Shown piece by piece: positions 1 through 12,734 of a stretch of 22,886 nucleotides of DNA. The stretch's first letter is position 1, and every line of letters starts with the position of its first letter. Below the pieces are notes generated by a model. It was not told the DNA's origin, searched no databases, and worked only from the letters and a program-made list of their open reading frames with translations. The translations under genes were made by a program, and so were the position numbers. The DNA comes from a plasmid. The DNA is taken from the sequence record NZ_CP072383.1. The stretch is one strand, 5' to 3'.

Positions 1-2245
1 GACTACAAGTATCCTGGTCATCTAAAAACTCCGTACCATCAATGCCAAATACGGCATGCCCGGTAAAATCTAACGTATCGGCAGGATTATCAAATACCCA
101 ACCGAATTCCCCACCTTGCGCCCAGTTTTTCAAACGACGGGCAAGGGAGTTTTCTTTTTCGGCTTTAGTTGAGCCTTCCGGCAAATGTTCAATCACGCGT
201 GAAATCGGATAACTGCGGTATTCCATATCAAATTCCATCACCGATTTAACCGCCTTGAATAATTCTTCTTCATCGAGTGATGACAACGTTCTGCCGTTAC
301 GCGTAACTAACATTTTCATCAACGTGGAAAGGAAAGACAGATTTTCCGGCGTGTTTTCACACATAAACGGATTAAAACCGGTCGGCACACCTTTACGGAT
401 CAGCATGTATTTTCCGCCCATGGCACGAATACAGGCTTCCGCACCGTAATCTTTATCCAGATATACCATTGTCAATTCACGTTTTACCGAGGTCGGTAAA
501 AAAGTAGAGGTATGTCTGAATTTATCCAGTTGTGTCATGAGAAACGTCATCAACATAGTTTTACCGGAACCCGCTTGCCCGAATACTGCGGTATTCCCCA
601 ACCGTTTTTCGCCTCTGTCATCAACACCGGGTGCGCTTTGGTGAAAGTTAAAATAGTACGGTTGACCGTTTGGCGTTTTCAGTAACGTTACCGCGTCTCC
701 CCAAGGGTTCCCGTTGCGTTTACCGGAGGCAAAATTATGTAAAGAAGTTAGCGACGCATAATTTCTTGAACTTAACATTGCCAGGCGTGGACGGTAGGCA
801 AAATTTGCCGGGAATTGACCGAAATAAGACGCGCTTAACGCCGTATTTGCCAATGTAATAATCAAACCTAAACTACTTAATACCGCAATAATTTCATTGG
901 TTTTATCAGTAACATCTTTTATAGAATCACCGTACACCATCATGCCAAAATGATAATAACCAAAGGATAAACGACCACTTGCTAAATCATCCAATGCAAC
1001 AGTTAAATTATCAACTTGCGAAATGGCAGCCTCGTTTGAGGAATTTAAGCGTTTTTGCTGTCTGTCTAACTTCTCTTTTGCAACATTGCTTGGCATGGAC
1101 TGAAAAGATTGTGTAATGACATAATCGGCATTGATATACATTAATGCGTCAAAAAAACCCTCACAGGTTTCTTCCGTATAATCTTTAATTTCAAGACAGC
1201 GGAAGAAACGGCTTTCACCATTAAAAGTAATTTGCCCAGTTTCTTTGCCAAAATGTAAATCGGTATTCCCCAGTAAGTGATAAAACGACGTGGAGGTAAC
1301 GCGTACAGGTTGCCAACGATTTGTAATCAGATAGTTGTAAAACGATAATTGTTCAGAATAAAGCGCACCGCCTTTACTAAAGGTTGTTAACGCTTCACCG
1401 CGAAAATCTTCCAGTGCTTTATCCAAGCGGGAACACATTTCTTGCATAGTCTCTAACTGATAAGCAAGCTCCTGTTTTTTATCCTTTAACTTGCTTGTTT
1501 TACGAGATATTTTTTCCAGTTTTGAATAAGGGGTATAAACCAACGTAACGTATAGTATGTTACGTTGTAATGTTCCATTATTAAAACCGGCATAGTATTT
1601 ATCATTTACTTCCTGCGTAAACTCGGAAGAAAAATGACCATCCAAGGTTTCATTGACTTTATGGCGAATATTATGCTGATAAAAACTAACCCCTTTTTTA
1701 GAAAAAGATTGGATTAAGGTATTCAACTTTTCTTTACTAAGATTGAGCTCATAATTTTCTGCGGTTTCAAACGTCACCCCTTTACAACACCAGGTGGCGA
1801 CTAAATCACCGTTACGGGTAATCACGACATTCGGTGCAATATGAGAAGAATAAGGAATGAATTTGGAATAATCCTTTTGTTCACCCAGTTTAATACCTAA
1901 TGTTTCGATTCGATTTTCAGAAAAAGCGGTTCGATTGTATTTTTGTGCCGTAAACGTTTTACTGCCAAAAAAACGCACGATCTTACCTAACCCGCTATTT
2001 GTCTTAAAATTGAGCATATTCAATGTTAAAAAATCCCTATCTGTTTCATACAGTAATCTTGTGCCAATAAGTAGCGGAATAGCCGGTAATACGGCATATA
2101 ATTTCCCGCTGATGAAATATGCCAGACCACTAAGAAAAGCAATGGCAAATATTATTGGAATGGGGATACCGCCGATCGTGGCTTGTGTTATCATGCCTTT
2201 AAAAAGCGGTTCACCACTGATTGTATTTTCTGAATCGGCTTGCAT
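1..2245 (-). CDS. virB4: VirB3-VirB4 fusion, N-terminal 748 codons (type IV secretion ATPase). The gene continues across the window junction into 22886..22360.
   Basis: Minus-strand translation from ATG at 2245 gives MQADSENTISGEPLFKGMITQATIGGIPIPIIF...RLLYETDRDFLTLNML, matching the VirB3 signature LFKG.T...GVP with two TM segments. It continues without a stop into a VirB4 body with Walker A GQAGSGKT near 590..615. There is no stop codon before position 1. RBS AAGG/GAAGG lies about 7 nt upstream. This ORF is absent from the ORF track because it lacks an in-window stop. Confidence 0.85.
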   Translation of the reverse strand, partial: MQADSENTISGEPLFKGMITQATIGGIPIPIIFAIAFLSGLAYFISGKLYAVLPAIPLLIGTRLLYETDRDFLTLNMLNFKTNSGLGKIVRFFGSKTFTAQKYNRTAFSENRIETLGIKLGEQKDYSKFIPYSSHIAPNVVITRNGDLVATWCCKGVTFETAENYELNLSKEKLNTLIQSFSKKGVSFYQHNIRHKVNETLDGHFSSEFTQEVNDKYYAGFNNGTLQRNILYVTLVYTPYSKLEKISRKTSKLKDKKQELAYQLETMQEMCSRLDKALEDFRGEALTTFSKGGALYSEQLSFYNYLITNRWQPVRVTSTSFYHLLGNTDLHFGKETGQITFNGESRFFRCLEIKDYTEETCEGFFDALMYINADYVITQSFQSMPSNVAKEKLDRQQKRLNSSNEAAISQVDNLTVALDDLASGRLSFGYYHFGMMVYGDSIKDVTDKTNEIIAVLSSLGLIITLANTALSASYFGQFPANFAYRPRLAMLSSRNYASLTSLHNFASGKRNGNPWGDAVTLLKTPNGQPYYFNFHQSAPGVDDRGEKRLGNTAVFGQAGSGKTMLMTFLMTQLDKFRHTSTFLPTSVKRELTMVYLDKDYGAEACIRAMGGKYMLIRKGVPTGFNPFMCENTPENLSFLSTLMKMLVTRNGRTLSSLDEEELFKAVKSVMEFDMEYRSYPISRVIEHLPEGSTKAEKENSLARRLKNWAQGGEFGWVFDNPADTLDFTGHAVFGIDGTEFLDDQDTCS

Positions 2246-2257
2246 GTTTTACCTTCT

Positions 2258-2545
2258 TTAAGGGAATAACCACAGTGCAATTTCAGGAACAACAATTAAT
2301 GTAATCGCACCATAAATCACTTTTGCTATACTTTCGAAAGGTTGCCCTCTCCACATCATTTGATAACCTGCAAATAAACCAGCTAATAAAAAGACAATAC
2401 CAGCAAAACCATGAATTTCAGTTGAGAATTGACTTAAATATTGTTTTGTTTTTTGTAAACCACCGGCAAAAGCGGGGTTGGTTGCCATCATGAAAAGCGC
2501 TGGAATAAGTGTGTAATGCAGTTTATGAGAAAGTTTATTAAACAT
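2258..2545 (-). CDS. virB2: VirB2/TrbC-family T-pilin
   Basis: 95 aa with a signal-like N-terminus ending AFA|GG and two hydrophobic helices. It sits directly between virB1 and virB3/4. Confidence 0.7.
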   Translation of the reverse strand: MFNKLSHKLHYTLIPALFMMATNPAFAGGLQKTKQYLSQFSTEIHGFAGIVFLLAGLFAGYQMMWRGQPFESIAKVIYGAITLIVVPEIALWLFP

Positions 2546-2571
2546 CTTTAACGTCCTTTATTGGTTAATAA

Positions 2572-3222
2572 TTAGTTGATAGAAGCAAGTTTCTTATCTT
2601 CTGCCGGCGGTGTTACCGGAGGAAGATTTTTATATAATCTGACTTGATGACGGTTTTTCCTGGCTTGTTGTGGTTTTTTCTCCTTTTTAGTTGTGGTTAC
2701 TTTTGCTACTTCGGCAACAGCAGCAACAGGTAAAGGTTCATTTTTCAAAGAGGGAATCGCAAAACTTTTTTCCGGGGTCGGTTCAAAGAGTTGTGCATGC
2801 ACTCTTTCGACATAACTGGTTCCTCGAAAATCTCTTTTGTATCCACGTAAGAAATTTCCGGAGTAATAGCAACTCAACGCGTCATTGACACTGCCGCTAC
2901 GTTGATAACAGTCTTGCAAAATTTGTTGCGCCACCTGCAGGTTATTACAAGGGTCAAACATTTGCTCAAGTGTTACTCCATAGCGTGAAAAGTTATGTTT
3001 GTTGATTTGCATAAGTCCGACAGAATAGTTTTTCCCCTCCTTTTCAAGTTGTTGTGCGGTTAATACCGCACTATTAAAGTCAGTGGGTTGTTTTACCCAG
3101 CCATCTACTACGCCTATCGCAAATTGATTTAATTTGCTTTCTTCTTTCATCACAGATAACGCAGTATCCGGATGAACGAGCGGGGCGCATATAGCAATCA
3201 TTTGTAGAGCTGTCATTGACAT
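2572..3222 (-). CDS. virB1: VirB1-like lytic transglycosylase
   Basis: SLT-domain motifs ES.LN...GLMQIN and a catalytic E in MKEES. A Pro/Lys-rich C-terminal tail is present. Position is immediately upstream of virB2. Confidence 0.85.
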   Translation of the reverse strand: MSMTALQMIAICAPLVHPDTALSVMKEESKLNQFAIGVVDGWVKQPTDFNSAVLTAQQLEKEGKNYSVGLMQINKHNFSRYGVTLEQMFDPCNNLQVAQQILQDCYQRSGSVNDALSCYYSGNFLRGYKRDFRGTSYVERVHAQLFEPTPEKSFAIPSLKNEPLPVAAVAEVAKVTTTKKEKKPQQARKNRHQVRLYKNLPPVTPPAEDKKLASIN

Positions 3223-3237
3223 AATCTTTTACTCAAC

Positions 3238-3675
3238 TCAGAACGGAATATCATCATCAAAATTATCTGCTGGAGTTCCCGCTTGCGGTTGTGGTGACGT
3301 TACCGGTTTAGCCTGGGCTTGTGCCGGTGCCTGTGTTGATTTCGGATCACCTAACATTTGCAATACATCACCTTGAATTTCAGTGGTATAACGGTCTTGC
3401 CCGCTTTGGTCTTGCCATTTACGCGTTTTTAAACGCCCTTCAATGTACACTTGTGAGCCTTTATGCAGGTATTCACCGCACACTTCCGCTTGACGGCGAT
3501 AAAATACGACACGGTGCCATTCGGTTACTTCCCGGCGTTCGCCGGTATTTTTATCCGTCCAGCTTTCACTGGTCGCAATACTAATATTCGCGACAGCTTC
3601 TCCGTTCGGCATGGCGCGCATTTCCGGCTCATTGCCTAAACGACCAACGATAATGACTTTATTAACTCCAGCCAT
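3238..3675 (-). CDS. ssb: single-stranded DNA-binding protein
   Basis: OB-fold N-terminus ([11 protein letters not shown]...PE.R...G), Q/P-rich linker and the canonical acidic tail DDDIPF. Confidence 0.92.
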
Positions 3676-3686
3676 AACTTTTCTCC

Positions 3687-4664
3687 TTAACGTTCAAAAT
3701 CTCTTGTTTGGGCTTTTTCCAGCTCTTTATTTACGCCTTTGCCCATATTAGCGCGTATTTCTTTATATTTTTCAGCGACACGGATAGCGCTTTCTATTCC
3801 AGCAATTCGCATAGCCACAAATTGCGCAGACTTTTCTTTATCCGAGCCGTTAAAGCTATGTCCGAAATTACCTTCAAGACCAGGCTTGTATTGTTCATGC
3901 AACGCATTTTCAAACGCTGTCTTGTATTCCGGTGATTGTAATTTTTTGCCCAACTCTAACGGGGTAATTTTCTGGTTATCCCAACGGATTAAATCTTCTT
4001 TGGCATTACCGTATTTTTCAGGTGAATTAACGGTCTTTTCGGCAGGATTGATGACCTGTTCTTTTGAACGGTCACGCAATGATTCAATACTGAATTTGGC
4101 AATGTGAACTTCGGCTTGTTGTAAACTGAATTGCGGGTTGCTGTAAGCCTGTAGACGCAAATTATCTTCAAAAGCGGTGTGATAAAGGCTATTTTGTGAT
4201 TTACGGCGCATTTCATCGGTAGATATATCGCCTTTGCGATACAAAGCTAAATCTTTCTGTGCAAGTGTAAATTGCTCACGATAGGCGGGGTTTTGACTAC
4301 TATTTTTCACCCAAGAATCTATTTCATTGCGCAGGGTTTGTTTATCTGCAATCGACTGATAAACCGCAGGTGCAACACTTAGCCCTTTATCCTTGCTTAA
4401 AATAGCGGCATCCAATCTTTCAAAATAACGTTTAATAAACTCCATACTATTTTTAGAAATCGTTCTGATTTCTTCAAAAAAGGAAGAGCGCGCTTCGATT
4501 TGTGGCGGTTTTTGATATTTATCTTCGAGCGCTTGCATAAAAGCTTTTTCATACGCCGGATTATCTAGACGTAAGCGAATCGCCTCAAAATCAGCAACAC
4601 GATGATTTATATCAAAATCCACGTCCTTTTTAAGTTCGCTTTCATTTTGCGGTGTGTACATCAT
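3687..4664 (-). CDS. hypothetical hydrophilic protein with three internal approximately 20-aa repeats (NPAYEKAF.., NPAYREQF.., SPEYKTAF..); no recognisable domain
   Basis: 325-aa ORF with no TM segment, K/E-rich. The motif [NS]P[AE]Y..(A/Q)F..AL...Y.KP recurs three times. It is the second gene of the operon, between the DinJ-like gene and ssb. Confidence 0.6.
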
Positions 4665-4759
4665 TAAGCCCTCTTACTTATTAACTCCAAAAACGGATCG
4701 GTTTTTATAACCGCGTTTATAATCATCTTTAACAGATAATTTCTAGAGGATTATTTGGA

Positions 4760-4963
4760 TTACAGCTTCCTTTCTTTCGCTATGCTTATCAATACAGCAG
4801 AATTTGTTAATTCATTTGGTAATTTTTTTTCATTTGCTATATAGCTTAAATATAGCCTAATGGCGTCAGAAACGGTTAATCCCATTTTTCGTAGTTCTTT
4901 AGCGGCTTGATTTTTCAGCGCCCTACTTGTGCGAACTCTAATTGAAATATCTGAATCTGTCAT
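4760..4963 (-). CDS. RelB/DinJ-family RHH protein (antitoxin-like); no cognate YafQ/RelE toxin gene nearby
   Basis: IRVRTSRALKNQAAKELRKMGLTVSDAIRLYLSYIANEKKLPNEL aligns closely with the E. coli DinJ N-terminal region (ARIDEDLKNQAADVLAGMGLTISDLVRITLTKVAREKALPFDL). It is the first gene downstream of the promoter at 4972..5000. Confidence 0.75.
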   Translation of the reverse strand: MTDSDISIRVRTSRALKNQAAKELRKMGLTVSDAIRLYLSYIANEKKLPNELTNSAVLISIAKERKL

Positions 4964-4971
4964 GTGTCCTC

Positions 4972-5000
4972 ATTGTATCCTTCTTGTGGGTATGGGTCAA
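4972..5000 (-). promoter_or_regulatory. sigma70-like promoter for the dinJ-like/ssb/virB operon
   Basis: Minus strand reads TTGACC-17 nt-TACAAT followed by GAGGACAC-ATG. The -35 is revcomp of 4995..5000 and the -10 is revcomp of 4972..4977. Confidence 0.5.
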
Positions 5001-5344
5001 TAATAAAATACCATAAAAATGAGTTTTTTTAACTTAAAAAATAGATCTTTCTTGATCTTTTTTGTGCATAAAGAGTAGAATAGGGAGCATTAACTTGCTT
5101 TCTGCTCAAGAAATGAGATTTGAGGCGAGAGGAAACTGAAAAAGAAAAAGCACCTCGGCAAAGGTGCTTATTCAAGAAGTGTGTTTTAACGAACTCTACC
5201 AAAGCAACGTTTGAAACACGATTAATAAAATCAGTTAGTATTATACTGGGCTGAATGTTATTTGCAATAGTTTTAAACTAAATTTTTACATTGTGAGTAC
5301 CTTAAAATCGTGATTCAAATGTTGCTTAACAAGAAATAGCAACA

Positions 5345-6352
5345 ATGAAGATTAAACGTAAAAAAATCAACAGAACATTCGGCTTTAAGTCATCAAAACG
5401 AGCTGTCAACTATGAGAAGGCCGCGAAGAAAAAACATCGCAATCTTACTCCTTTCTTTACTCAAAATCTCCAGAGCCGGGAATTTGCTTATACAACGTGG
5501 TTTTTCCTGCAACGTTGTGAAACCCATAATTTCAATAAGAATCCTTACTTGAACGCTTTACGATTAAGTAAATATCAGCGTGAGACTATCCGCCGGGAAC
5601 GTCGGGAAGTCCTTTCTGTTTTGTTGCCAACGCTTATTACGTACTGTGACTTTTCTCCGGCAAGCGATTATCTCTTTGAAGTCCGCTCAAACGTCGAACA
5701 TATCGCTAATATGTGTAATCAGGCTTATGTATCGTGGGATAAGAACGGTAAAAATCGAGTGCGTTACGATACGGTACTCAATGCTATTCAAATGTTGGAA
5801 GACGCTGAATTGATTACTGTATTACGTGAGTATGACCGATTGGGACAAAAGCATAAACCAATGCGGATTTTCTTAAACGTTGAATTCTTTTTAATGTTCA
5901 ACATTACAGAGAAAGAATTAAGAAAAATCCTGGTCGATTTCCATAAATATCAATTTGTGAACAATCGTGTAAATCAAACATTCGAGCGTTATAAAAAACA
6001 TCTAGACAAACTGGAAAATAAAGGTGTGGCTGGTATTAAACAGCACTATTCATTAAAAAACTTACTCATCAAACGCCGAAAGGATTTGTTAGGCGAGCAC
6101 GTCATTAAATTTGTTTCTCAACGTAAGCCGGTAAATTATCTTGATTTAGACATTGAAAGCGACGTTTTTAAACCTTGTTTTCGTTCGTTTGCCGACTGTA
6201 ACACAACGGAAGAAGTACAAAAACTCCGCAAGCGTCTATATGACAAGGAGCGAATAAGACAACGAGCGCGAGAAAAAGCGGCAAACGATATTTTGTACCG
6301 GAAAGCCCTCAAAGAAAGCTACATGACCGATTTACAACATTACGCCTCTTAA
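5345..6352 (+). CDS. repA: plasmid replication initiator, IncFII RepA1-like family
   Basis: Central region RRE..LSVLLPTL...D.....RYDTVLNAIQMLEDAELITVLREYDRLG....PMRIFLNVEFF parallels R100 RepA1 (RRRAIDALLQGL...SITRATRALTFLSELGLITYQTEYDPLIG.YIPTDITFTSALF) as I recall it, not checked by alignment. It is the only large plus-strand gene in this region, followed by an AT-rich non-coding stretch. Confidence 0.65.
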   Translation: MKIKRKKINRTFGFKSSKRAVNYEKAAKKKHRNLTPFFTQNLQSREFAYTTWFFLQRCETHNFNKNPYLNALRLSKYQRETIRRERREVLSVLLPTLITYCDFSPASDYLFEVRSNVEHIANMCNQAYVSWDKNGKNRVRYDTVLNAIQMLEDAELITVLREYDRLGQKHKPMRIFLNVEFFLMFNITEKELRKILVDFHKYQFVNNRVNQTFERYKKHLDKLENKGVAGIKQHYSLKNLLIKRRKDLLGEHVIKFVSQRKPVNYLDLDIESDVFKPCFRSFADCNTTEEVQKLRKRLYDKERIRQRAREKAANDILYRKALKESYMTDLQHYAS

Positions 6353-6702
6353 TTTAATCATCTTTTTTCAGTTGATGGCTTGGTTTTACTAAGTCACGAC
6401 TCAACACATCTACCAATATGAAATTGCTTATAATTTAGGCTATTTCATCTACCTTATTTTTATTTCAGAGTAAAGATTGCATTGATACTAACCAAATTTT
6501 GCTAAATTCATGCGGCATTGTGAGTAAGTTGTGTGTTTGTTGTTAGGTAAATATTATTAAATTCGCCCTTAATTTCGGCACTAAACGTTATTCCATAATT
6601 TATTTTTAAATATAAAAATAAGGAACAGAAAATCTCCGATTTTCAAATAATAGGACCCTTGCTACCGCAAGGGCAAAATACACTCCGATTCAATATTTAT
6701 TG
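6353..6702. other. AT-rich non-coding region downstream of rep; candidate vegetative origin
   Basis: 350 bp with no ORF and very AT-rich (for example atttatttttaaatataaaaataagg). Position relative to a RepA1-family gene matches where IncFII-type ori lies. No convincing DnaA box was seen. Confidence 0.35.
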
Positions 6703-6852
6703 GGTAACAGTATGCAACCAGTTTAAGAAATTTGCTCCTGTGCTTATCAAGGTCAAGCCCTACGGGTTGGCTACGCCAAACCTTGACAATCACCCGCAAA
6801 TTCTTAATGGTTTAGCATACCGTTACCCCCTCATTTGTGCTAAAGCACGATA
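6703..6852. repeat. IR-L, the left copy of a 150-bp perfect inverted repeat (partner 8791..8940)
   Basis: Reverse complement of 6703..6852 is identical base for base to 8791..8940. The copy contains a TTGACA-N16/17-(T)AATGGT promoter-like motif at 6783..6811 and an internal 13-bp imperfect IR (6703..6715 versus 6815..6827, 12/13). Confidence 0.9.
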
Positions 6853-6854
6853 TA

Positions 6855-6892
6855 AACAAAAAGTGCGGTAAATTTCTACCGCACTTTTATTC
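6855..6892. terminator. bidirectional rho-independent terminator built from an inverted USS pair; terminates ardC
   Basis: acaaaaAAGTGCGGTAaatttcTACCGCACTTttattc has a 10-bp stem, a 6-nt loop, and A-run and T-run flanks. AAGTGCGGT is the Haemophilus-type uptake signal sequence core. Confidence 0.7.
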
Positions 6893-6929
6893 TAATATGT
6901 TTAATAATATTTATGTTTTTACATAAATA

Positions 6930-8057
6930 TTATCTTTCCTTCTCTTGTTCTTTGATAGGTTCTTTTTGAAAGGCGAGCTGCGCCTTCAATTTATGATATG
7001 CTTCCACTGCATTTGACTTCATGGATTCATCAAAAGATTTATAGCCCTGATGTTGGGCAAACGAGATAATATGATTGTTTTGTTGAACAGCTTCTTTTGA
7101 TGGAGATTTATCCAAGGTTAATTCTTTGTCATGTAGTGTAATGTAATTTGATACTTTTACAGCCGTTTTTATAGCGTCTTTAAAATCATCATTTGTCAGT
7201 TTACCCGCCATAATCCACCCGCGCAAATATGCCAACGAATTTTTTTCATCGGAAAAATCTCGTTTAGGATTTTGCACGGCAATTTGATATTTCCTGGAAA
7301 GTAACATTGATGAAATTTCAGCTATAAGTTCTTCTTTAGCGTACTCTTTTGAATTCATATCAAAAGAAATTTTCCTATTTAGTCTGGACGGGTGAGAAGT
7401 TGCATGAGACGCTTCATGTAGAAGTGTGCCGTAGTACTCTTTTTTGCCTTTGAACTGTGCCTTATCTGGAATCACGATGAGATCTAAATCCGGTTGATAG
7501 TAAGCCTTATTACTAAACTTTTCCTCAACATTAATATTCATGTTTCTAACAAGTTGTTCTATCCGTTCTATGTTATATAGATCGCGCTTTTTTCGGTCTT
7601 CTATTGTGATTTCCGGCGGGGTATAAGGAGGGAGCCCGGTTGTTTGTTGAGCATTAAAAACAATGTAATATTTTGCTATATAGCCATCAATTATTTCTAC
7701 TTCTCTTTGATTTTTCCCTTCTTGGTCAACAATCGGTTTGCCGTTTTGGTCTTTTTTAATTCGTTCAATTTTATTCGTATAAAATTGTATCAATCGACCC
7801 TTTTCACCTTTCTTAACTTGTCCGCCGAGTGCTTTAATTTGCTTATAAGTAAACCATCGAGGATCATCATACGGGGAAAAATAAAGATTTAACTCATTAA
7901 TGCCGGAGTATGGTCTGCCTGTATTTCCATTTTGGGGATATATATCAAAACTATTCCAGCGTTTTTCCCATTTTGAATCATTATTAATAATGGCATTACG
8001 TATTGTTTCCGCTAACCGATCTTCATAATCTGCGCGAATATCTTTTTTCTCTGCCAT
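6930..8057 (-). CDS. ardC: ArdC-family antirestriction protein (N-terminal ssDNA-binding domain plus C-terminal zincin metalloprotease)
   Basis: 375 aa. A HExxH motif occurs in LLHEASHATSH, and the N-terminal domain (NGNTGRPYSGINELNL, FTYKQIKALGGQVKKGEKG) is typical of ArdC/TraC-primase-N-like proteins. RBS GAGGAAG is present. Confidence 0.85.
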   Translation of the reverse strand: MAEKKDIRADYEDRLAETIRNAIINNDSKWEKRWNSFDIYPQNGNTGRPYSGINELNLYFSPYDDPRWFTYKQIKALGGQVKKGEKGRLIQFYTNKIERIKKDQNGKPIVDQEGKNQREVEIIDGYIAKYYIVFNAQQTTGLPPYTPPEITIEDRKKRDLYNIERIEQLVRNMNINVEEKFSNKAYYQPDLDLIVIPDKAQFKGKKEYYGTLLHEASHATSHPSRLNRKISFDMNSKEYAKEELIAEISSMLLSRKYQIAVQNPKRDFSDEKNSLAYLRGWIMAGKLTNDDFKDAIKTAVKVSNYITLHDKELTLDKSPSKEAVQQNNHIISFAQHQGYKSFDESMKSNAVEAYHKLKAQLAFQKEPIKEQEKER

Positions 8058-8074
8058 ATCTTCTTCCTCATAAA

Positions 8075-8212
8075 CTAATCGTCTGAATTTATTTCCGGAT
8101 CAACTGCCTCTATATCAATTCCTGATGTATCCAAATCATAGATAACACCATCATCGGCTAAATCCTTGTTGATTTCGTCTAAATCAGATTGGCTAATTGG
8201 TAGCGTTGTCAT
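8075..8212 (-). CDS. small highly acidic protein (45 aa), unknown; candidate DNA-mimic or anti-defence protein
   Basis: Minus-strand ORF MTTLPISQSDLDEINKDLADDGVIYDLDTSGIDIEAVDPEINSDD with a GGAG RBS 7 nt upstream. It is below the 60-aa cutoff of the ORF track. It overlaps the end of the upstream ORF by 20 nt and ends 18 nt before ardC. Confidence 0.4.
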   Translation of the reverse strand: MTTLPISQSDLDEINKDLADDGVIYDLDTSGIDIEAVDPEINSDD

Positions 8213-8477
8213 TTTTTTCTCCTTCATCAATACATAAAAAATGAACTACTTTAAAATCATCATTCTTGAAATTATTAATCAAGAACTCTCTAAAATCAGC
8301 TTTAAAGGTAGGATCACTTTTACATTGTTCTTTAATTATTAGATAGGCTTTATAAGCCTTATCTTTATCATTTTTAATCTTATTTTCCTGTTCCTGTTTG
8401 ATACGCAGCTTTTCTTTTTTCTCCTCTAGTTTTAACTGCTCTTTCAACTTTTCAATCTTAGAATTTGTAATCTTCAT
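8193..8477 (-). CDS. hypothetical K/E-rich coiled-coil protein (94 aa from MKITNSK)
   Basis: ORF 8193..8528; the likely start is ATG at 8477 (MKITNSKIEKLKEQLKLEEKKEKLRIKQEQENK...). No domain recognised. First gene downstream of IR-R. Confidence 0.5.
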   Translation of the reverse strand: MKITNSKIEKLKEQLKLEEKKEKLRIKQEQENKIKNDKDKAYKAYLIIKEQCKSDPTFKADFREFLINNFKNDDFKVVHFLCIDEGEKNDNATN

Positions 8478-8566
8478 GATTATTACCTTTTTGTTAAAAA
8501 TATGTGTACCTATAACTTGTCGCGCCACGCTTTTATCGCCGATGGCGACCGTGTGGAAAAATTGTG

Positions 8567-8711
8567 CAAAACTGCTTGCAGTTTTACACCGAATTTTACC
8601 ACACTTAAAAGCTATTTTTGAAAATTATACACAGTCACTTACGCTCGCTTACGCTCACTATTCGGGATAAGAAATTTTTGGGCTTTTTTAGAGCTCCAAA
8701 AATTTCTTACC
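8567..8711. promoter_or_regulatory. structured non-coding region: palindrome, tandem 10-bp repeat and a 14/16-bp-stem hairpin
   Basis: caaaactgc-tt-gcagttttac at 8567..8586. cttacgctcg/cttacgctca tandem at 8638..8657. Inverted repeat taagaaatttttgg (8668..8681) / ccaaaaatttctta (8696..8709) with a 14-nt loop. Confidence 0.4.
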
Positions 8712-8790
8712 ACTCATCCGTTCTTGTGCATAATTTTCAAAAATTTACCGAACTCCGAATCACTTAAATCTTTATTATCAATTTTATCTG

Positions 8791-8940
8791 TATCGTGCTT
8801 TAGCACAAATGAGGGGGTAACGGTATGCTAAACCATTAAGAATTTGCGGGTGATTGTCAAGGTTTGGCGTAGCCAACCCGTAGGGCTTGACCTTGATAAG
8901 CACAGGAGCAAATTTCTTAAACTGGTTGCATACTGTTACC
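8791..8940. repeat. IR-R, the right copy of the 150-bp perfect inverted repeat; carries a promoter-like motif reading leftward into the 94-aa ORF/ardC module
   Basis: Identical to the reverse complement of 6703..6852. The -35 TTGACA is revcomp of 8855..8860 and the -10-like motif is revcomp of 8832..8838. Confidence 0.9.
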
Positions 8941-9029
8941 TCTGATGGTATCACTATTAGCTTAAATCTTCTACATTTCTTTGCGTAAATCTGAGTTTTG
9001 TGTTAGATTTAAGTCCATGTTCTTTAAAG

Positions 9030-9055
9030 GACTAATGCAGGATAGCGACAAGCGC
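9030..9055 (-). other. candidate oriT nic region (IncP/MOBP-type nic core TATCCTG|C on the minus strand)
   Basis: Revcomp of 9037..9044 (gcaggata) is TATCCTGC, an 8/8 match to the RP4/R751-type nic core YATCCTG|Y. It lies 35 to 50 bp upstream of mobC. It is oriented so the mob genes would be transferred last. A nearby 9-bp inverted pair cttaaatct/agatttaag lies at 8962..9024. Confidence 0.5.
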
Positions 9056-9088
9056 CTTAAAGTGATACACCTTAAAAAATAATGTAGT

Positions 9089-9631
9089 ATGATTTCAGAC
9101 AAAAATTGTAGAGTTATTATAACGTTAAATAACTCTTTAAGAAAAAAATTAAATGAAATTTGTGATAAAACTGGAAATAGTTTAAGTAGTTTAGTTGCTA
9201 AAGTTTTATCAAATTATTTTTCTGATGATGTAATGTTTGTTGAAATGCTTCCGTCTCGTGAACTAGAAAAGAAGCAAATTAGAATAAGTCTTACACTTTC
9301 TGAAATTTCTGCATTGGAAATGCACGCAGAAAATCATGGATTTTCGATTAGTGAGGAAATTGTTTTTAGGATTTTATCTACGCTTTCTAACGAACCTAAA
9401 CTTTTGAATGATGAATTATCTGAAATCATAAAATTAAGAACAGCATTAAATCAAGTTGGGCGAAATGTTAATCAGATTGCTAAAAAATCATCTAAAGATA
9501 TAAACGAAAGGGAGCTATTAATAGCATTAAAAAATACTCAATTTTGGATTGATAAATTGGATAAAAAACTTGATGAATTAATTTCAAAAACGGTGGATAG
9601 ATGGGCGTTCGTATCGAAAAAGAATGGTTAG
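9089..9631 (+). CDS. mobC: MobC-family relaxosome accessory protein with N-terminal RHH-like repeats
   Basis: Contains LNQVGRNVNQIAK, matching the MobC signature L.RIG.NLNQIAR. Sits directly upstream of the relaxase. Confidence 0.75.
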   Translation: MISDKNCRVIITLNNSLRKKLNEICDKTGNSLSSLVAKVLSNYFSDDVMFVEMLPSRELEKKQIRISLTLSEISALEMHAENHGFSISEEIVFRILSTLSNEPKLLNDELSEIIKLRTALNQVGRNVNQIAKKSSKDINERELLIALKNTQFWIDKLDKKLDELISKTVDRWAFVSKKNG

Positions 9632-9759
9632 TAAGAAGAGTTAAAAAGGATTCTTCAGTTTCTTATTCTAGCAATAAGAAATTTAGAGAATCTAGCTATT
9701 CCTATAATGCTTCATCCAAACTGAAAACACAGCGTAATTTTCATAATTCTAATGAGGTT

Positions 9760-10335
9760 ATGGTTAAAATTACAAGCAGCGGAAAGAATCTTAAAGCTAT
9801 CAAGTCACACATGGATTATATTTCAAGAAATGGTGATATTCAGTTAGAGGATGAACAAGGGTTAGTTTATAAAGGTCGTGAGGAAGTGCGCGAGCTTAGA
9901 GATTATTTGCGTGATAATGGTGTTAAAATCAAGAAGAAAAATGAGCTTAAACGCGAGTATCGCCAAACGATGAATATTGTTTTTTCTATGCGTGATAAAA
10001 GCATTCCGGAGGAAAAAATTAAGAAGGCTGTTAAAGCCACTTTGAAAAAATTATATCCTGATAACATGTTCGTATTGGCTTATCATGGTGATACGGATAA
10101 TCCTCATTGTCATGTCATTTTAAAAATTGCCGATAACAATGGAAATCGAGTTAATATCAATCTCCATGATTTACAAGAAATCAGAACGCATTTTGCAAGA
10201 TACCTTAATTCATTAAGTGTTGAGGCTAAGGCACAACACCATTCAAAAAATCCGTTAATAAATTGCCTAGCCGAGCTGTCGAAATTGTCGATTTTGGCAA
10301 AGATTTTTATCAGCATAAGCCTGAAAATAAAATGA
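9760..10335 (+). CDS. mobA: MOBQ/MOBP-superfamily relaxase (MobA-like) N-terminal catalytic domain. The reading frame appears interrupted, see 10263..10769.
   Basis: MVKITSSGKNLKAIKSHMDYISRNG parallels RSF1010 MobA MAIYHLTAKTGSRSGGQSARAKADYIQREG with the catalytic Tyr. The 3-His motif HGDTDNPHCHVIL parallels MobA ..ENPHCHLMI. The ORF track extends to ATG 9601 and overlaps mobC; the real start is more likely 9760 (GAGG upstream, short spacing). Confidence 0.8.
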   Translation: MVKITSSGKNLKAIKSHMDYISRNGDIQLEDEQGLVYKGREEVRELRDYLRDNGVKIKKKNELKREYRQTMNIVFSMRDKSIPEEKIKKAVKATLKKLYPDNMFVLAYHGDTDNPHCHVILKIADNNGNRVNINLHDLQEIRTHFARYLNSLSVEAKAQHHSKNPLINCLAELSKLSILAKIFISISLKIK

Positions 10336-10769
10336 GTTATTTTGTGACGTATAAGGGGCAAAATGGCAAAAATGTGACGATATGGAGTAAAACATTAGAG
10401 GAAAGTTTATTATCCTCAGATGTTAAACGTGGCGATGTTATATCGCTTAAAATCAGCCACATTGAAAAAGTTTCTTTGCCTCGATTCATAAATGATAAAT
10501 CGGGAAATATGAGTAATGAAATTATCTTGAATCGTAAGCATTGGAAAGCCGATATTGTTGAACGGTATAAAGGATTATCGTACAAGGCTGATCCATTAAT
10601 TGAATATCAACGTGCAAGACGATTATCAATGCTGAATGCTTTAAATCAAAAAGAACGTATTGCTAAGAGTAATGAAAAAGCCCTTTCTCCGAAAGAGCGT
10701 TATGAGCAAAATAAACGTAAGCTATTAAGTGAACGTAAATTACCGCCTGCACAAGAACGTTTTAGGTAG
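10263..10769 (+). CDS. second ORF overlapping the relaxase 3' end by 73 nt in the +2 frame; likely the relaxase C-terminal region separated by a frameshift, or alternatively a separate MobB-like gene
   Basis: Frame is open from 10230. An A6 run at 10245..10250 lies inside the overlap. The first ATG is at 10332 with a poor RBS; the TTG start at 10263 is the ORF-track call only. Confidence 0.45.
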   Translation: MPSRAVEIVDFGKDFYQHKPENKMSYFVTYKGQNGKNVTIWSKTLEESLLSSDVKRGDVISLKISHIEKVSLPRFINDKSGNMSNEIILNRKHWKADIVERYKGLSYKADPLIEYQRARRLSMLNALNQKERIAKSNEKALSPKERYEQNKRKLLSERKLPPAQERFR

Positions 10770-10772
10770 ATT

Positions 10773-11351
10773 TTATAATGCTGTAGGGCGTAAATCCTCG
10801 AGAATATCACTAGGAAAATAGGCATATATACTTGACTGTGATATGCCTAATTTTTCTGCTATTTTTTTTACCGTCCAACCGGCCTTTAATAGTTCTCTTA
10901 TTATCTCTATATTATCTTCTGTCATTTTAGGCGGGCGTCCTATTCTTACACCCTGTTCCCTTGCAAATTTTATGCCTGCTTTTGTGCGTTCGATGATACT
11001 GTTACGTTCCATTTCTGCAAATATGGACGCAAAATAAAATAACCATTCTCCAAATATTGTTCTTGTGTCTATGTTTTCGATAAGGCTGACAACACTCACC
11101 TTTTTCTCCTTTAGTGTTTCAAGAACCCGGCTTGATTGAGAAATGCTACGTCCTAACCTATCTAATTTCCATACTATGAGCGTATCTCCTTCTCTGAGAA
11201 AAGTTAATGCCTTTTTGAATTCCCTACGGTCATCAGAATTTCCACTCTCCTTTTCAGAAAAAATTTTTTCACATCCGGCATTTCTCAGTGCTTGGATCTG
11301 CATTTCATAGTTTTGTTCTTTTGTCGATACACGGGCATAACCAACTAACAT
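10773..11351 (-). CDS. serine recombinase (resolvase/invertase family)
   Basis: N-terminal YARVST.EQ with the catalytic Ser, a DRLGR motif and a C-terminal HTH (WTVKKIAEKLGISQSSIY). 192 aa. RBS AGAGGTG. Confidence 0.9.
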   Translation of the reverse strand: MLVGYARVSTKEQNYEMQIQALRNAGCEKIFSEKESGNSDDRREFKKALTFLREGDTLIVWKLDRLGRSISQSSRVLETLKEKKVSVVSLIENIDTRTIFGEWLFYFASIFAEMERNSIIERTKAGIKFAREQGVRIGRPPKMTEDNIEIIRELLKAGWTVKKIAEKLGISQSSIYAYFPSDILEDLRPTAL

Positions 11352-11395
11352 AATTCACCTCTTTTTATTCGGATAATAGCTGATTTTACAATGAC

Positions 11396-11490
11396 TTCCA
11401 AAAAGTATTTCTGGAGAACTTTTTAGAACGGAAGGAGGGCGTTTATGAGCTCAATAAAAAAATTCCAAAAACCGATCCGTTTTTGGAATT
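11396..11490. promoter_or_regulatory. res-like recombination or operator region upstream of the recombinase gene: two palindromic subsites
   Basis: Subsite 11461..11490 is aattccaaaaac-cgatcc-gtttttggaatt (perfect 12-6-12). Subsite 11396..11428 is ttccaaaaag-13 nt-ctttttagaa. Confidence 0.5.
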
Positions 11491-11599
11491 TTAGAGGTTA
11501 AATTTAGATAGGAGTTTAGTTGTTACATCCTCTTACTCAACAATTAAGCTCTGTGGTCAAAACTTAAAAAATCATCCCTATAATTGCAAAGATAATAAC

Positions 11600-12448
11600 T
11601 CATAGTGTCCTCTCCTGTTCCTTATTTAAGGAAATTTCAGGCTTTTTTTCGGCTATTTCCTTTTTTTTCGCAACTTCATAGGCAAGTTTAGGATAATCCT
11701 TTTGCCACTGCGGATAGATTACCTGTAATTCACGTTCTATCGAACGTTGTACGGAATCTTTGAGTAACCGGGTAATGGCTTGATAATCGCCCTTATCTGC
11801 GTTTGCTAGCGCGTTGTAATAGTTTTCCCTATCCGTCGGCTCAATAATGGCGATACTGTAACCGGCATTCATCAGTTCAAGATTCATAATTAAACGTCCG
11901 GTGCGCCCGTTGCCATCAACGAAAGGATGAATCCCTACAAAATCCGCATGGAGTTTCGCAATTCGTTCAAGTGCCGGCGTTTGGTTTTCTTTATCCAGGC
12001 GATTTTGTTCAATCAATCGTTCCATGGCGTTTTGTAACAAATAAGGCTGTGGGGGAATATGCTCCGCACCTTGAATCATTACCGGTACACTGCGGTATTT
12101 GCCGGCATAAATTTCTTTCTCTGTGCCTTTCAGTAACAACGCATTAAATTCTTTAATATGGCGTTCGGATAGTGATTCTTTCGCTTTCACTATATCCAAT
12201 AGGTAATTAATGGCTTCCCTGTGGTTGATTACATCCAGGTGATCTTTAAACGGTTTCCCCTTGGCCGTAATCCCATTTTCCAGTAATACCCGGGTTTCAA
12301 TTAAAGTGAGCTGGTTGCCTTCAATCGCATTAGACGCTTGGTTATAACGCAACATAAAATCATCTTGTAAAGATTTTGTCGTAACCGGGTCAAGCGGACG
12401 CTTCGAATCCAATACTTTTTTTAGTTCATTTACAGTATTCATGTTCAC
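11600..12448 (-). CDS. fic: Fic-family protein (AMPylator/Fido), class II with its own N-terminal inhibitory motif
   Basis: Canonical Fic motif HPFVDGNGRTGR. Inhibitory motif (S/T)xxxE(G/N) as SNAIEGN near residue 38. Confidence 0.9.
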   Translation of the reverse strand: MNMNTVNELKKVLDSKRPLDPVTTKSLQDDFMLRYNQASNAIEGNQLTLIETRVLLENGITAKGKPFKDHLDVINHREAINYLLDIVKAKESLSERHIKEFNALLLKGTEKEIYAGKYRSVPVMIQGAEHIPPQPYLLQNAMERLIEQNRLDKENQTPALERIAKLHADFVGIHPFVDGNGRTGRLIMNLELMNAGYSIAIIEPTDRENYYNALANADKGDYQAITRLLKDSVQRSIERELQVIYPQWQKDYPKLAYEVAKKKEIAEKKPEISLNKEQERTL

Positions 12449-12494: not shown

Positions 12495-12734
12495 TTATAA
12501 CATGCCTTTTTCTTTTAAATCCTTACTAAGTAAGTCATTAAAATACTCTTTCAACTTAATATCATTAAGTAACGCGTATTTCTTCGCTGCTTTGTAAACA
12601 TCCACCGGAATCATGATGGTAGTTCGTTGTTCGGCAATAGTTACTTCCTCTTTGAGCTGTGGCATAGCCGTTTTTTCAATGCTACCCATAGAAAGCCCGG
12701 ATTTGCTTAGTGTGCCTTTTGTTAATTTACTCAT
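12495..12734 (-). CDS. parG: ParG-like RHH centromere-binding/partition protein
   Basis: 79 aa with C-terminal RHH (TIMIPVDVYKAAKKYALLNDIKLKEYFNDLL). Overlaps the parA stop by 8 nt. Confidence 0.6.
   Translation of the reverse strand: MSKLTKGTLSKSGLSMGSIEKTAMPQLKEEVTIAEQRTTIMIPVDVYKAAKKYALLNDIKLKEYFNDLLSKDLKEKGML

Follow-up and report, generated by a model that had tools for sequence, protein, structure and literature searches.

A segment of about 6.8 kb in conjugative plasmids of the pVT745 family of Pasteurellaceae occurs in nature in both orientations, and the breakpoints lie within two short sites at its ends. These are very likely crossover sites of a recombinase at which the segment inverts, a reading that rests on comparative evidence, without read-level counts or biochemistry, while the assignment of the catalyst rests on adjacency and homology. 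No earlier report of the inversion was found in the literature that could be searched. The plasmid stretch analysed (sequence record NZ_CP072383.1, 22,886 nucleotides, hereafter the window) belongs to this family, and its relevant features are listed in Table 1. The segment contains the relB-like gene, rep, an ArdC-like block, a nikA-like/MobP1 relaxase (oriT region) and the recombinase gene. That is, a complete rep-mob replicon lies inside it, and the remainder of the plasmid has none. Site 1 precedes the ATG of orf325 (4664) by 22 nt and follows the relB stop at a distance of 52 nt, and site 2 precedes the ATG of the recombinase gene (11351) by 110 nt. The product of orf325 has no match in Pfam or NCBIfam, and the relB-like gene has no neighbouring toxin gene.

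Table 1. Positions of the sites, genes and putative control elements in the window
Feature	Position	Strand	Remarks
orf325	3687..4664	-	Heads the orf325-ssb-virB1-virB2-virB4... operon; ATG 22 nt from site 1
Site 1, 26 bp: CTCCAAAAACGG-AT-CGGTTTTTATAA	4685..4710	.	Dyad centre AT 4697-4698; inversion breakpoint in relatives
Invertible segment, ~6.78 kb	4698..11475	.	Opposite-strand alignment in relatives and stand-alone contig L061
RelB/DinJ-like ribbon-helix-helix gene, 67 aa	4760..4963	-	
Candidate relB promoter TTGACC-17-TACAAT	4972..5000	-	10/12 matches; consensus scan only
Small serine recombinase, 192 aa	10773..11351	-	Gin-like; Resolvase domain and HTH_7; Leu104, Tyr106
Candidate recombinase promoter TTGGAA-17-TATTAT	11373..11401	-	Consensus scan only
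Accessory dyad ('site II'): TTCCAAAAAG-N13-CTTTTTAGAA	11396..11428	.	~63 bp centre-to-centre from site 2
Site 2, 26 bp: TTCCAAAAACCG-AT-CCGTTTTTGGAA	11463..11488	.	Dyad centre AT 11475-11476; inversion breakpoint in relatives
Fic-family gene	11600..12448	-	Closes the parA-hyp-fic unit, outer side of site 2

The 20-mer CCAAAAACGGATCGGTTTTT has two exact matches in the window, at 4687-4706 on the + strand and at 11467-11486 on the - strand, where none is expected from dinucleotide shuffles, and the pairing is not due to chance. With a repeat finder the pair grows to 24 nt at 96% identity (4683-4706 / 11467-11490). Positions 11461-11490 read AATTCCAAAAAC-CGATCC-GTTTTTGGAATT, a perfect 12+6+12 palindrome, and positions 4687-4708 read CCAAAAAC-GGATCG-GTTTTTAT. 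The original prediction, made from the sequence alone, that the same palindrome occurs at both places with these letters was correct. Its statement that the second copy is the first site inverted also held within the window, and rests solely on the two bases flanking GATC. GATC itself is invariant at the dyad centre in all lineages. Since its flanking bases vary among relatives (G, C or T), and since both site centres of the Mannheimia plasmids are CGATCG and thereby fully palindromic, the core has no conserved polarity. The sites take the general form TTCCAAAAAC-SG-AT-CS-GTTTTTGGAA. Site 1 is composed of an outer half-site, a, on the orf325/T4SS side and a degenerate inner half-site, b (TTATAAAAAC), on the relB side, the TTAT of b being kept in every lineage but Muribacter; site 2 is composed of an inner half-site, c, on the recombinase side and an outer one, d, on the Fic side. 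Both sites are kept in plasmids in which the recombinase is just 63-85% identical and the site flanks cannot be aligned, and it is from this survival where the flanks have diverged that selection on the sites is read.

A generic palindrome was considered as an explanation of the motif and rejected, as a 48-nt query around it matched only seven records among 72,556 plasmids, all of the pVT745 family. CCAAAAACGGATCGGTTTTT was not found outside the family in the same plasmid set, and a degenerate form of the 20-mer gave 37 stretches in 241 million metagenome records, this plasmid family accounting for about half of the 37. The degenerate form was also present in two viral contigs.

The original prediction held further that these are crossover sites between which a 6.8-kb segment carrying rep, oriT, mob and the recombinase gene can invert. 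This is supported by near-identical natural isoforms, by breakpoints inside the 24-bp repeat, by the ends of one contig and by the Gin-like recombinase. Assembled relatives were used instead of reads in the search for the inverted isoform, and both orientations were found. Naming the window's orientation state A and the opposite one state B, the tally over ~54 contigs was 6 A (five loci by gene neighbours, and L043, from an 84%-identical lineage, by its junction) and 48 B. Region 4683-11490 of the window aligned with six complete plasmids on the strand opposite to that of both flanks; such an opposite-strand alignment of the segment was seen in L002-L007, L011 and others, and the ends of the segment and flank alignments overlap by exactly the 24-bp repeat. 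Among complete plasmids, the window is colinear only with pRCADGH-2. No contig of the ~54 was in a mixed state, both junctions of every contig being in agreement.

Several of the plasmids that differ in orientation are otherwise nearly the same. In flank and segment alike, contig L011 shares 99.81% identity with the window, yet it is inverted, and pRCADGH-2 (A) and pFJ6683 (B) encode identical proteins and have a common cassette insertion. Presence or absence of the cassette and orientation are found in all four combinations, and at least two inversion events must therefore have taken place; counted between near-identical plasmids, there were at least 3-4 independent flips. Contigs L074 (B) and L075 (A), each of 21,290 bp, diverge exactly at the site, with T4SS regions 100% identical over 3,283 bp and segments showing one mismatch in 2,689 bp. 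The mutual relationship of samples ERZ27295994 and ERZ27295995 is unknown, a caveat to the inversion model. In both states, the b arm and the variable bases that adjoin GATC (c=T, b=C) remain with their flanks, and exchange therefore occurred within a 14-bp interval made up of the outer arm and GATC. Furthermore, a 6,774-bp contig of Rodentibacter pneumotropicus (L061, GCA_004795315.1) starts with GGATCGGTTTTTGGAA and ends with AGAAACCGATCC. Its ends are the centres of both sites, precisely at the nucleotides from which half-sites a and d cease to agree, as predicted by a mixture of inversion isoforms and not by an excised circle, though the assembler used for this contig is unknown.

One could argue that the palindromes are merely terminators or operators and that the isoforms are assembly artefacts. 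In favour of this, site 2 on the - strand is terminator-like, with a 14-bp stem followed by a T7 run pointing into the recombinase gene (MFE -15.4 kcal/mol, z -4.0), and short-read assemblers are able to mis-join at repeats. Against it, both types of junction are found in finished records of plasmids sequenced by different laboratories as well as in numerous independent contigs, each of which is self-consistent; the k=141 given in the k141_ contig names exceeds the length of the repeat (24 bp); and in the direction of transcription, from relB to orf325, site 1 does not resemble a terminator. This explanation can be all but ruled out, although, judging from sequence alone, a terminator role of site 2 could possibly coexist with one in recombination.

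Another explanation would be RecA-dependent homologous recombination or replication template switching at the short inverted repeats, without a site-specific recombinase. The 24-bp repeats are near the lower limit for homologous exchange, and the crossover is resolved no finer than the 14-bp interval. However, the segment also contains an internal inverted repeat of 159 bp and 98% identity, for which no orientation variant was seen in any long locus, and general homologous recombination is disfavoured for this reason. The number of independent flips, the conservation of the sites where their flanks have diverged, and their Din-like character next to a Gin-like gene likewise speak against it, and we regard this explanation as very improbable.

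The recombinase has an N-terminal catalytic domain (Ser9/10; PF00239, E 7.7e-41) and a C-terminal HTH (PF02796, E 2.5e-10), and its GYARVST motif aligns with GYVRVST of Gin. Its top match among solved structures is the Gin invertase (142 bits, E 1.5e-40, 44% identity without gaps over 181 aa), and matches to the resolvases Sin (94.6 bits), gamma-delta (94.1 bits) and Tn3 (92 bits) are weaker, with E values of ~1e-25. That is, the protein is much closer in sequence to invertases than to resolvases. Changes at H107 and F105 of Hin lead to independence from Fis and the enhancer (PMC3798978, PMC4513852), and the plasmid enzyme, unlike Hin, naturally has Tyr and Leu, respectively, at these positions. 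Tyr106 and Leu104 hint against a need for a Fis-bound enhancer, and an excess of synonymous conservation in the ~25 first codons hints in favour of an enhancer, which in Din systems normally lies in cis within the 5' part of the recombinase gene.

The system was compared with the Din invertases, namely Hin/hix (Salmonella flagellar switch), Gin/gix (phage Mu), Cin/cix (P1), Pin/pix (e14) and Min/mix (plasmid p15B). The hix, gix, pix and mix sites are 26 bp long and run from TTC to GAA (PMC3241671), and the plasmid sites share this span, with an A-tract then C in each half. In addition to the kinship of the enzymes, the recombinase gene adjoins one site and, as with hin, lies within the invertible segment, and the product is an inversion, as judged comparatively, not biochemically, from natural isoforms with breakpoints in the sites. 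The likely effect, which is inferred, would also be as for Hin: a change in which promoter of the segment transcribes an operon that itself stays in place. There are differences, however. Relative to the dix pattern (TTC...AAAC- / 2-bp core / -GTTT...GAA), the AAAC block and its A-tract are displaced outward from the dyad by 1 bp and the inner bases are not the same; the core is a symmetric AT inside GATC, whereas an asymmetric AA or GA gives polarity to the Din sites; the 6.8-kb segment carries rep, oriT/relaxase and anti-restriction genes instead of tail-fibre or flagellin functions; and a recombinase-type accessory dyad accompanies one of the plasmid sites.

This accessory dyad has the consensus TTCYAAAAAR-N13-NTTTTTGGA, for which there are no binding data. 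The half-site pattern TTCYAAAAAS matches four times in the window, always within 11396-11488, and the window scan gave no match near site 1 besides the crossover site itself. The spacing and position of the dyad are kept in the pVT745, Rodentibacter, Mannheimia and Muribacter plasmids, and it always accompanies the recombinase gene. Its right half is the -35 hexamer of the candidate recombinase promoter. We infer that the dyad may serve autoregulation or assist synapsis. As an additional function, the alternative offered by the original prediction, in which both palindromes are operators of a single regulator, is still possible, given this second recombinase-type dyad overlapping the candidate recombinase promoter.

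A crossover site together with a longer-spaced, putative accessory dyad upstream of the recombinase gene, overlapping its candidate promoter, resembles the resolvase/res systems (Tn3, gamma-delta TnpR, Sin of staphylococcal plasmids, beta of pSM19035). Site I of Tn3/gamma-delta also has a symmetric central AT, and the beta recombinase is also able to invert. Unlike these systems, the plasmid recombinase is much less similar to resolvases and Sin than to Gin, the dyad is found at only one of the two partner sites, and the natural products are inversions, not deletions. The presence of the dyad at a single partner site counts against the inversion model as well, since the arrangement matches neither the classical resolvase nor the classical invertase scheme. 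The symmetric AT core and the outward shift of the A-tract weigh in the same direction.

Among plasmids, the staphylococcal beta-lactamase plasmids pI524/pI258 (Bin recombinases of Tn552) similarly carry a small serine recombinase that inverts a plasmid segment between inversely oriented res-like sites; host phylum and recombinase subfamily differ, and their segment has no replicon and does not abut a T4SS operon. The shufflon of R64/IncI is also an inversion on a conjugative plasmid that alters a conjugation function, but Rci, a tyrosine recombinase, has multiple sfx sites as its targets, and shuffles pilV C-terminal exons and not backbone or promoter context. FLP/FRT of the yeast 2-micron plasmid likewise flips an origin-bearing part relative to the rest by site-specific inversion; FLP differs in being a tyrosine recombinase, with 599-bp inverted repeats and a known role in copy-number amplification. 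Nothing in the data on the pVT745 family shows such a role.

In the mechanism we propose, dimers of the plasmid-encoded Gin-like recombinase would bind both 26-bp sites, cut around the central AT of GATC and exchange strands, so that the block with relB, rep, the ArdC-like gene, oriT/relaxase and the recombinase gene would change its orientation with respect to the part with the T4SS and parA-fic. The recombinase as catalyst and cleavage at AT are inferred. In state A, relB and its putative promoter are directly upstream of orf325-ssb-virB and co-directional with it, and the recombinase gene lies downstream of fic, behind the terminator-like hairpin. In the commoner state B, the recombinase gene is divergent from orf325, and relB converges on fic.

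As the start codon of orf325 is just 22 bp away from site 1, the operon promoter must lie across the site. Only in orientation A does the T4SS operon follow relB immediately and in the same direction, and the candidate relB promoter then reads through relB and site 1 into orf325-ssb-virB. No sigma-70 match of >=9/12 pointing into the T4SS operon was found for state B in the consensus scan; match counts in these scans were near the shuffle expectation. The claim that inversion swaps the promoter feeding this operon is thus plausible and remains an inference, there being no room for a promoter after site 1 and a relB promoter upstream in the window's orientation only. Whether flipping indeed changes transcription of the T4SS operon could go either way.

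Alternatively, the inversion could be real but a neutral by-product, without effect of orientation on T4SS expression. The true job of the recombinase would then be multimer resolution and/or autoregulation at the gene-proximal site, made up of the crossover site ('site I') and the accessory dyad, and the distal site would be a remnant, such as one left when a small rep-mob replicon became fused to a T4SS module. The dyad lies beside the recombinase gene only and overlaps its candidate promoter, as in a typical res site; the two orientations are unequally represented; the segment is a full replicon and the rest has none; and B is common although no strong promoter is predicted for it. On the other hand, the distal site is kept in every lineage, down to 63% recombinase identity with unalignable flanks, the recombinase is far nearer to invertases than to resolvases, and the 22-nt gap places the operon promoter across the site. 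Moreover, no deletion junction (a|d or b|c) was seen among the contigs compared, and fusion junctions and a free 6.8-kb plasmid were looked for without being found. On balance we lean against this explanation.

A bolder version of the inversion model, which is no more than possible, is that the flip is a heritable and reversible conjugation switch. State A would fuse the T4SS operon to the relB promoter, whereas in state B the operon would be severed from it, behind recombinase-bound sites and an RBS-occluding leader. If so, the mating apparatus would be expressed from no more than a fraction of the plasmid copies. Its natural Tyr106 and Leu104 would allow the invertase to work without a Fis enhancer. 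Furthermore, since the crossover AT lies in the central GATC, which the original prediction had noted as a Dam site, hemimethylation after replication or entry of transferred DNA could time the flip; there are no methylation data, and a role of Dam remains speculative. Plasmid pVT745, which is in state B, is reported to be self-transmissible, and, if so, state B is therefore not simply an OFF state. The predominance of state B (48 to 6) could indicate that flips are rare events rather than a frequent switch.

The window is a nearly complete circular plasmid of the pVT745 family (conjugative, MOBP/MPF_T, Pasteurellaceae), 98.8% identical to Pasteurella multocida pRCADGH-2; Haemophilus parainfluenzae and Aggregatibacter actinomycetemcomitans also carry relatives. 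An Rfam search of the window returned no known RNA.

Features of the plasmid and of its two palindromic sites (window positions unless indicated)
Feature	Position	Strand	Remarks
T4SS operon		-	one long operon, orf325-ssb-virB1-virB2-virB4...virD4-cag12-trbM
parA-hyp-fic	after T4SS operon	-	
Segment between the sites			6.8 kb; relB-like, rep, ArdC-like, nikA-like and MobP1 relaxase, 192-aa serine recombinase
Site 1	4687-4708		CCAAAAAC-GGATCG-GTTTTTAT; by orf325
Site 2	11461-11490		AATTCCAAAAAC-CGATCC-GTTTTTGGAATT; by recombinase gene
24-nt inverted repeat	4683-4706 / 11467-11490		repeat finder
Exact 20-mer copies	4687-4706; 11467-11486	+; -	CCAAAAACGGATCGGTTTTT
RelB/Fic observation	4760-4963 and 12495-12734 / 11600-12448		
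159-bp inverted repeat	6703-6861 / 8782-8940		98% identity; repeat finder
ArdC-like/zincin gene	6930-8057	-	
MobP1 relaxase gene	9601-10769	+	388 aa
CA 2-bp insertion	10232-10233		in relaxase gene
Conserved recombinase 5' part	11277-11351	-	first ~25 codons
Accessory dyad	11396-11428		TTCCAAAAAG-N13-CTTTTTAGAA
Cassette position	11535-11558		in relatives L001 18114-22189 and L003 24527 onward

Each of the two sites spans 26 bp, from the outer TTC through the outer GAA, with an A-tract followed by a C in each half and a symmetric AT core within an invariant GATC. The original prediction had described them as sharing their arms, with the centre inverted in one copy. This description held, both on direct reading of the sequence and because the exact 20-mer occurs within the window at these two places only, on opposite strands (shuffling leads one to expect no copies). 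The objection that such a motif might be common throughout genomes failed: it is present in 7 of 72,556 plasmids, all seven being pVT745-family members. In degenerate form the 20-mer was found in 37 stretches among 241 million metagenome records, about half of them from the pVT745 family, and also in two viral contigs. By these counts, the site motif is not a generic palindrome. The two bases flanking the GATC vary and both Mannheimia sites read CGATCG, so that the core has no conserved polarity; from sequence alone, we infer that the inversion outcome must be dictated by synapse architecture. Very similar perfect palindromes, e.g. GATTCCAAAAACGGATCCGTTTTTGGAATC, lie on unrelated environmental/viral contigs (L053 45-66, L030 427-446 and L058 6424-6445), where they could serve related recombinases or be terminators that arose by chance.

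The flanks of the sites will be named a (towards orf325), b (towards relB), c (towards the recombinase gene) and d (towards fic). State A, found in the window, has the junctions a-b and c-d, and state B the junctions a-c and b-d. In six complete plasmids (pFJ6683, two H. parainfluenzae plasmids, pVT745, pS57 and pS23A) the region corresponding to window 4683-11490 lies on the opposite strand to both flanks, corresponding to state B, and the alignment ends at the state B junctions overlap by exactly the 24-bp repeat. The only complete plasmid colinear with the window was pRCADGH-2. Among all fetched loci, 48 were in state B. On the basis of their neighbouring genes, five (the window, L001, L069, L075 and L079) were assigned to state A, a sixth state A locus, the 84%-identical relative L043, being recognized via its b-a junction. 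No contig mixing the two states, no a-d or b-c junction and no free 6.8-kb plasmid was found among these loci.

Both orientations occur in near-identical plasmids. The relative L011 shows 99.81% identity to the window in the flank (1-4706) as well as in the segment (4686-11490), yet is inverted. Plasmids pRCADGH-2 (state A) and pFJ6683 (state B) encode identical proteins and share the same resistance-cassette insertion point, and the insertion is absent from both the window (A) and the locus L004 (B); since all four combinations of cassette and orientation occur, at least two inversion events are needed. Furthermore, L074 (B) and L075 (A), two 21,290-bp contigs whose source analyses bear adjacent accession numbers, show 100% identity across 3,283 bp of the T4SS and a single mismatch across 2,689 bp of the segment, and they part exactly at the site. 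The comparison of these three pairs indicates that the flips are recent and recurrent. It is therefore very likely, on strong comparative evidence, that the sites are recombinase crossover sites at which the 6.8-kb segment inverts, which supports the main reading of the original prediction. In the index of public assemblies, 1,344 blocks contain exactly this recombinase protein. A scan of species-representative genome contigs for the recombinase gave only two unrelated loci, in Legionella and in a MAG; these genomes evidently lack a pVT745-type plasmid.

In a single isolate, Rodentibacter pneumotropicus GCA_004795315.1, the segment forms a separate 6,774-bp contig that starts with GGATCGGTTTTTGGAA and ends with AGAAACCGATCC. 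The half-sites differ in this species (AAAAAT in a, AAAAAC in d), and the contig ends precisely at the last base before the a and d neighbours would differ. A 24-bp repeat by itself would not break a contig, and such ends are what an assembly graph yields if the reads include both the a and the d neighbour. Alternatively, the contig could be an excised 6.8-kb circle. This was rejected: the ends include the a/d-derived base at +3, and thus fit an inversion mixture and not a b-c hybrid site; in an excised circle, the divergence would have set in one base sooner. A search for the complementary contig of this isolate by SSB homologues did not recover the exact protein.

The half-sites of pRCADGH-2, pFJ6683 and L004 can be told apart by the GATC-adjacent bases (G in a, C in b, T in c and G in d) and by the arms (ATAAAAAC in b, CTCC in a). 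Each marker keeps its own flank in both states. Therefore, exchange must take place between inner position 3 and outer position 13, leaving an interval of 14 bp that includes the dyad centre; cleavage at the central AT is inferred from how serine recombinases work. General homologous recombination between the repeats would be another explanation for the flips. The segment itself carries a 159-bp inverted repeat, six times the length of a site, but no orientation variant of the block within it was seen, the orientation being the same in every long locus. General homologous recombination is thus disfavoured. The 159-bp repeat is found in every family plasmid, encloses the ArdC-like/zincin gene together with two small ORFs, and is where many short-read contigs stop (L015-L019, L060 and L072-L078). 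Its place beside the nikA/oriT region raises the possibility of a duplicated element, either oriT-proximal or single-strand.

The 192-aa recombinase contains Resolvase and HTH_7 domains, and its best match among solved structures is the Gin invertase (E 1.5e-40, 44% identity over 181 residues without gaps), compared with E values of about 1e-25 for Sin, gamma-delta resolvase and Tn3 resolvase. Given this gapless alignment, and since Gin numbering equals Hin numbering minus one (PMC4513852), Leu104 and Tyr106 can be equated with Hin Phe105 and His107. In Hin, the changes F105L and, most notably, H107Y make inversion possible in the absence of Fis and the enhancer (PMC3798978, PMC4513852). Among 120 homologues, WLFY or MLFY is confined to the pVT745 clade, and the His is kept in nearly all others. 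By analogy with Hin, these residues suggest, short of demonstrating it, that the enzyme is independent of a Fis enhancer. Counting against such independence, synonymous-codon identity among the window, Rodentibacter and Mannheimia recombinase genes is 0.89-0.95 in the first ~25 codons and 0.4-0.65 in the remainder of the gene. This could reflect an embedded cis element, e.g. a recombinational enhancer, or merely a translation-initiation constraint.

The pattern TTCYAAAAAS has four matches in the window, all within 11396-11488. Two make up site 2, and the other two form the accessory dyad, whose spacing and distance of ~63 bp from site 2 are kept in the pVT745, Rodentibacter, Mannheimia and Muribacter plasmids while the surrounding DNA has diverged. 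The right half of the dyad is the -35 hexamer (TTGGAA) of the sole promoter-like match upstream of the recombinase gene. In the absence of binding data, the dyad is inferred to be a recombinase-binding accessory and operator site. Because it always travels with the recombinase gene, there is one complete and one bare site in each state.

By mode of action, the closest known systems are the Hin and Gin invertase switches. At 26 bp the sites have the span of hix, gix, cix, pix and mix (table in PMC3241671), and an A-tract then C is present in each half; the AAAC block, however, lies here one base further from the dyad, and the inner bases differ. Where Din-family sites have AA or GA at the core, the present ones have a symmetric AT set in GATC, and so lack the core asymmetry that is a defining feature of that family. 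The accessory dyad and symmetric core are res-site-like, but a resolvase scheme fails on partner-site symmetry and product type. The system represents a naturally occurring relative of Gin that is unusual in three ways (symmetric core, hyperactive-type tyrosine and res-like accessory site), and a ready test case for invertase control without the classical Fis enhancer. No description of inversion in these plasmids was found in the searchable literature, which was incomplete and did not include the original pVT745 paper; this is not proof of novelty.

Site 1 lies 22 nt from the orf325 ATG, ribosome-binding site included, and the genes after orf325 are spaced by 11-15 nt. Given these distances, the operon promoter must sit beyond site 1, in the invertible segment. 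A candidate relB promoter, TTGACC-17-TACAAT, matches the consensus at 10 of 12 positions. In state A it would be predicted, at consensus level, to read relB and then, through site 1 (no T-run follows), orf325. In state B, orf325 is instead preceded by the divergent recombinase gene; no sigma-70 match of at least 9/12 toward orf325 was found in this state, the best candidate by eye being TTTATT-17-TACAAT (8/12). The state B leader would fold as a 12-bp hairpin in which the ribosome-binding site of orf325 pairs with the c flank (-18.2 kcal/mol, z -3.7). In the window, site 2 and the c flank make up a terminator-like hairpin with T7 ahead of the recombinase gene. All these promoter and hairpin consequences are consensus-level predictions. 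Plasmid pVT745, in state B, is self-transmissible, so that state B is probably not fully OFF. That the flip alters T4SS operon regulation is thus a reasoned inference with, at best, an even chance of being right, and the promoter swap of the original prediction remains an inference of the same tentative standing. A role of Dam methylation at the crossover GATC is speculative.

Plasmids of the pVT745 type occur commonly in oral and respiratory Pasteurellaceae of humans, and P. multocida versions carry ESBL, cfr and other resistance genes. If true, a built-in inversion that re-wires what lies upstream of the entire T4SS operon would give a plasmid a new route to conjugation heterogeneity within a population, and would also account for assemblies of these plasmids disagreeing or breaking at the sites.

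Several minor observations concern the surrounding genes. The blaVEB-18, aadB, arr-2 and cmlA5 cassettes of pRCADGH-2 and pFJ6683 are inserted on the fic side of site 2, at a distance of 47-70 bp, and pFJ6683 has IS256, IS26, cfr and erm as well. A 152-aa hypothetical gene of L004 and L069 is absent from the window at this spot. A Tn402-type 'res hunter' origin of the pRCADGH-2 cassettes was dropped, as the Tn402 terminal repeat was not found. Relative to the 99.8%-identical L011, the CA insertion breaks the relaxase up into two ORFs (244 and 168 aa), reflecting either a transfer-defective copy or a sequencing error; the relaxase annotation is fragmented in pS57 and pS23A too. The orf325 gene, without match in Pfam or NCBIfam, is missing from pVT745 and pS57, and the endpoint of this deletion (or insertion) coincides precisely with the outer arm of site 1 (...tttttCC/AAAAAC; window 3721/4688, L002 480-500). 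About 14 kb of pS23A is also found in A. actinomycetemcomitans chromosomes (PMC3688926); this part (11732-24102 plus 1-1754 of pS23A) is essentially the T4SS/parA region outside the invertible segment, and its ends do not match the two sites. The RelB/DinJ-like gene has no toxin partner and is therefore more likely to encode a ribbon-helix-helix regulator. A VbhA-type antitoxin precedes the Fic gene in the relatives from Mannheimia and Muribacter, suggesting that a Fic toxin-antitoxin pair may adjoin site 2.
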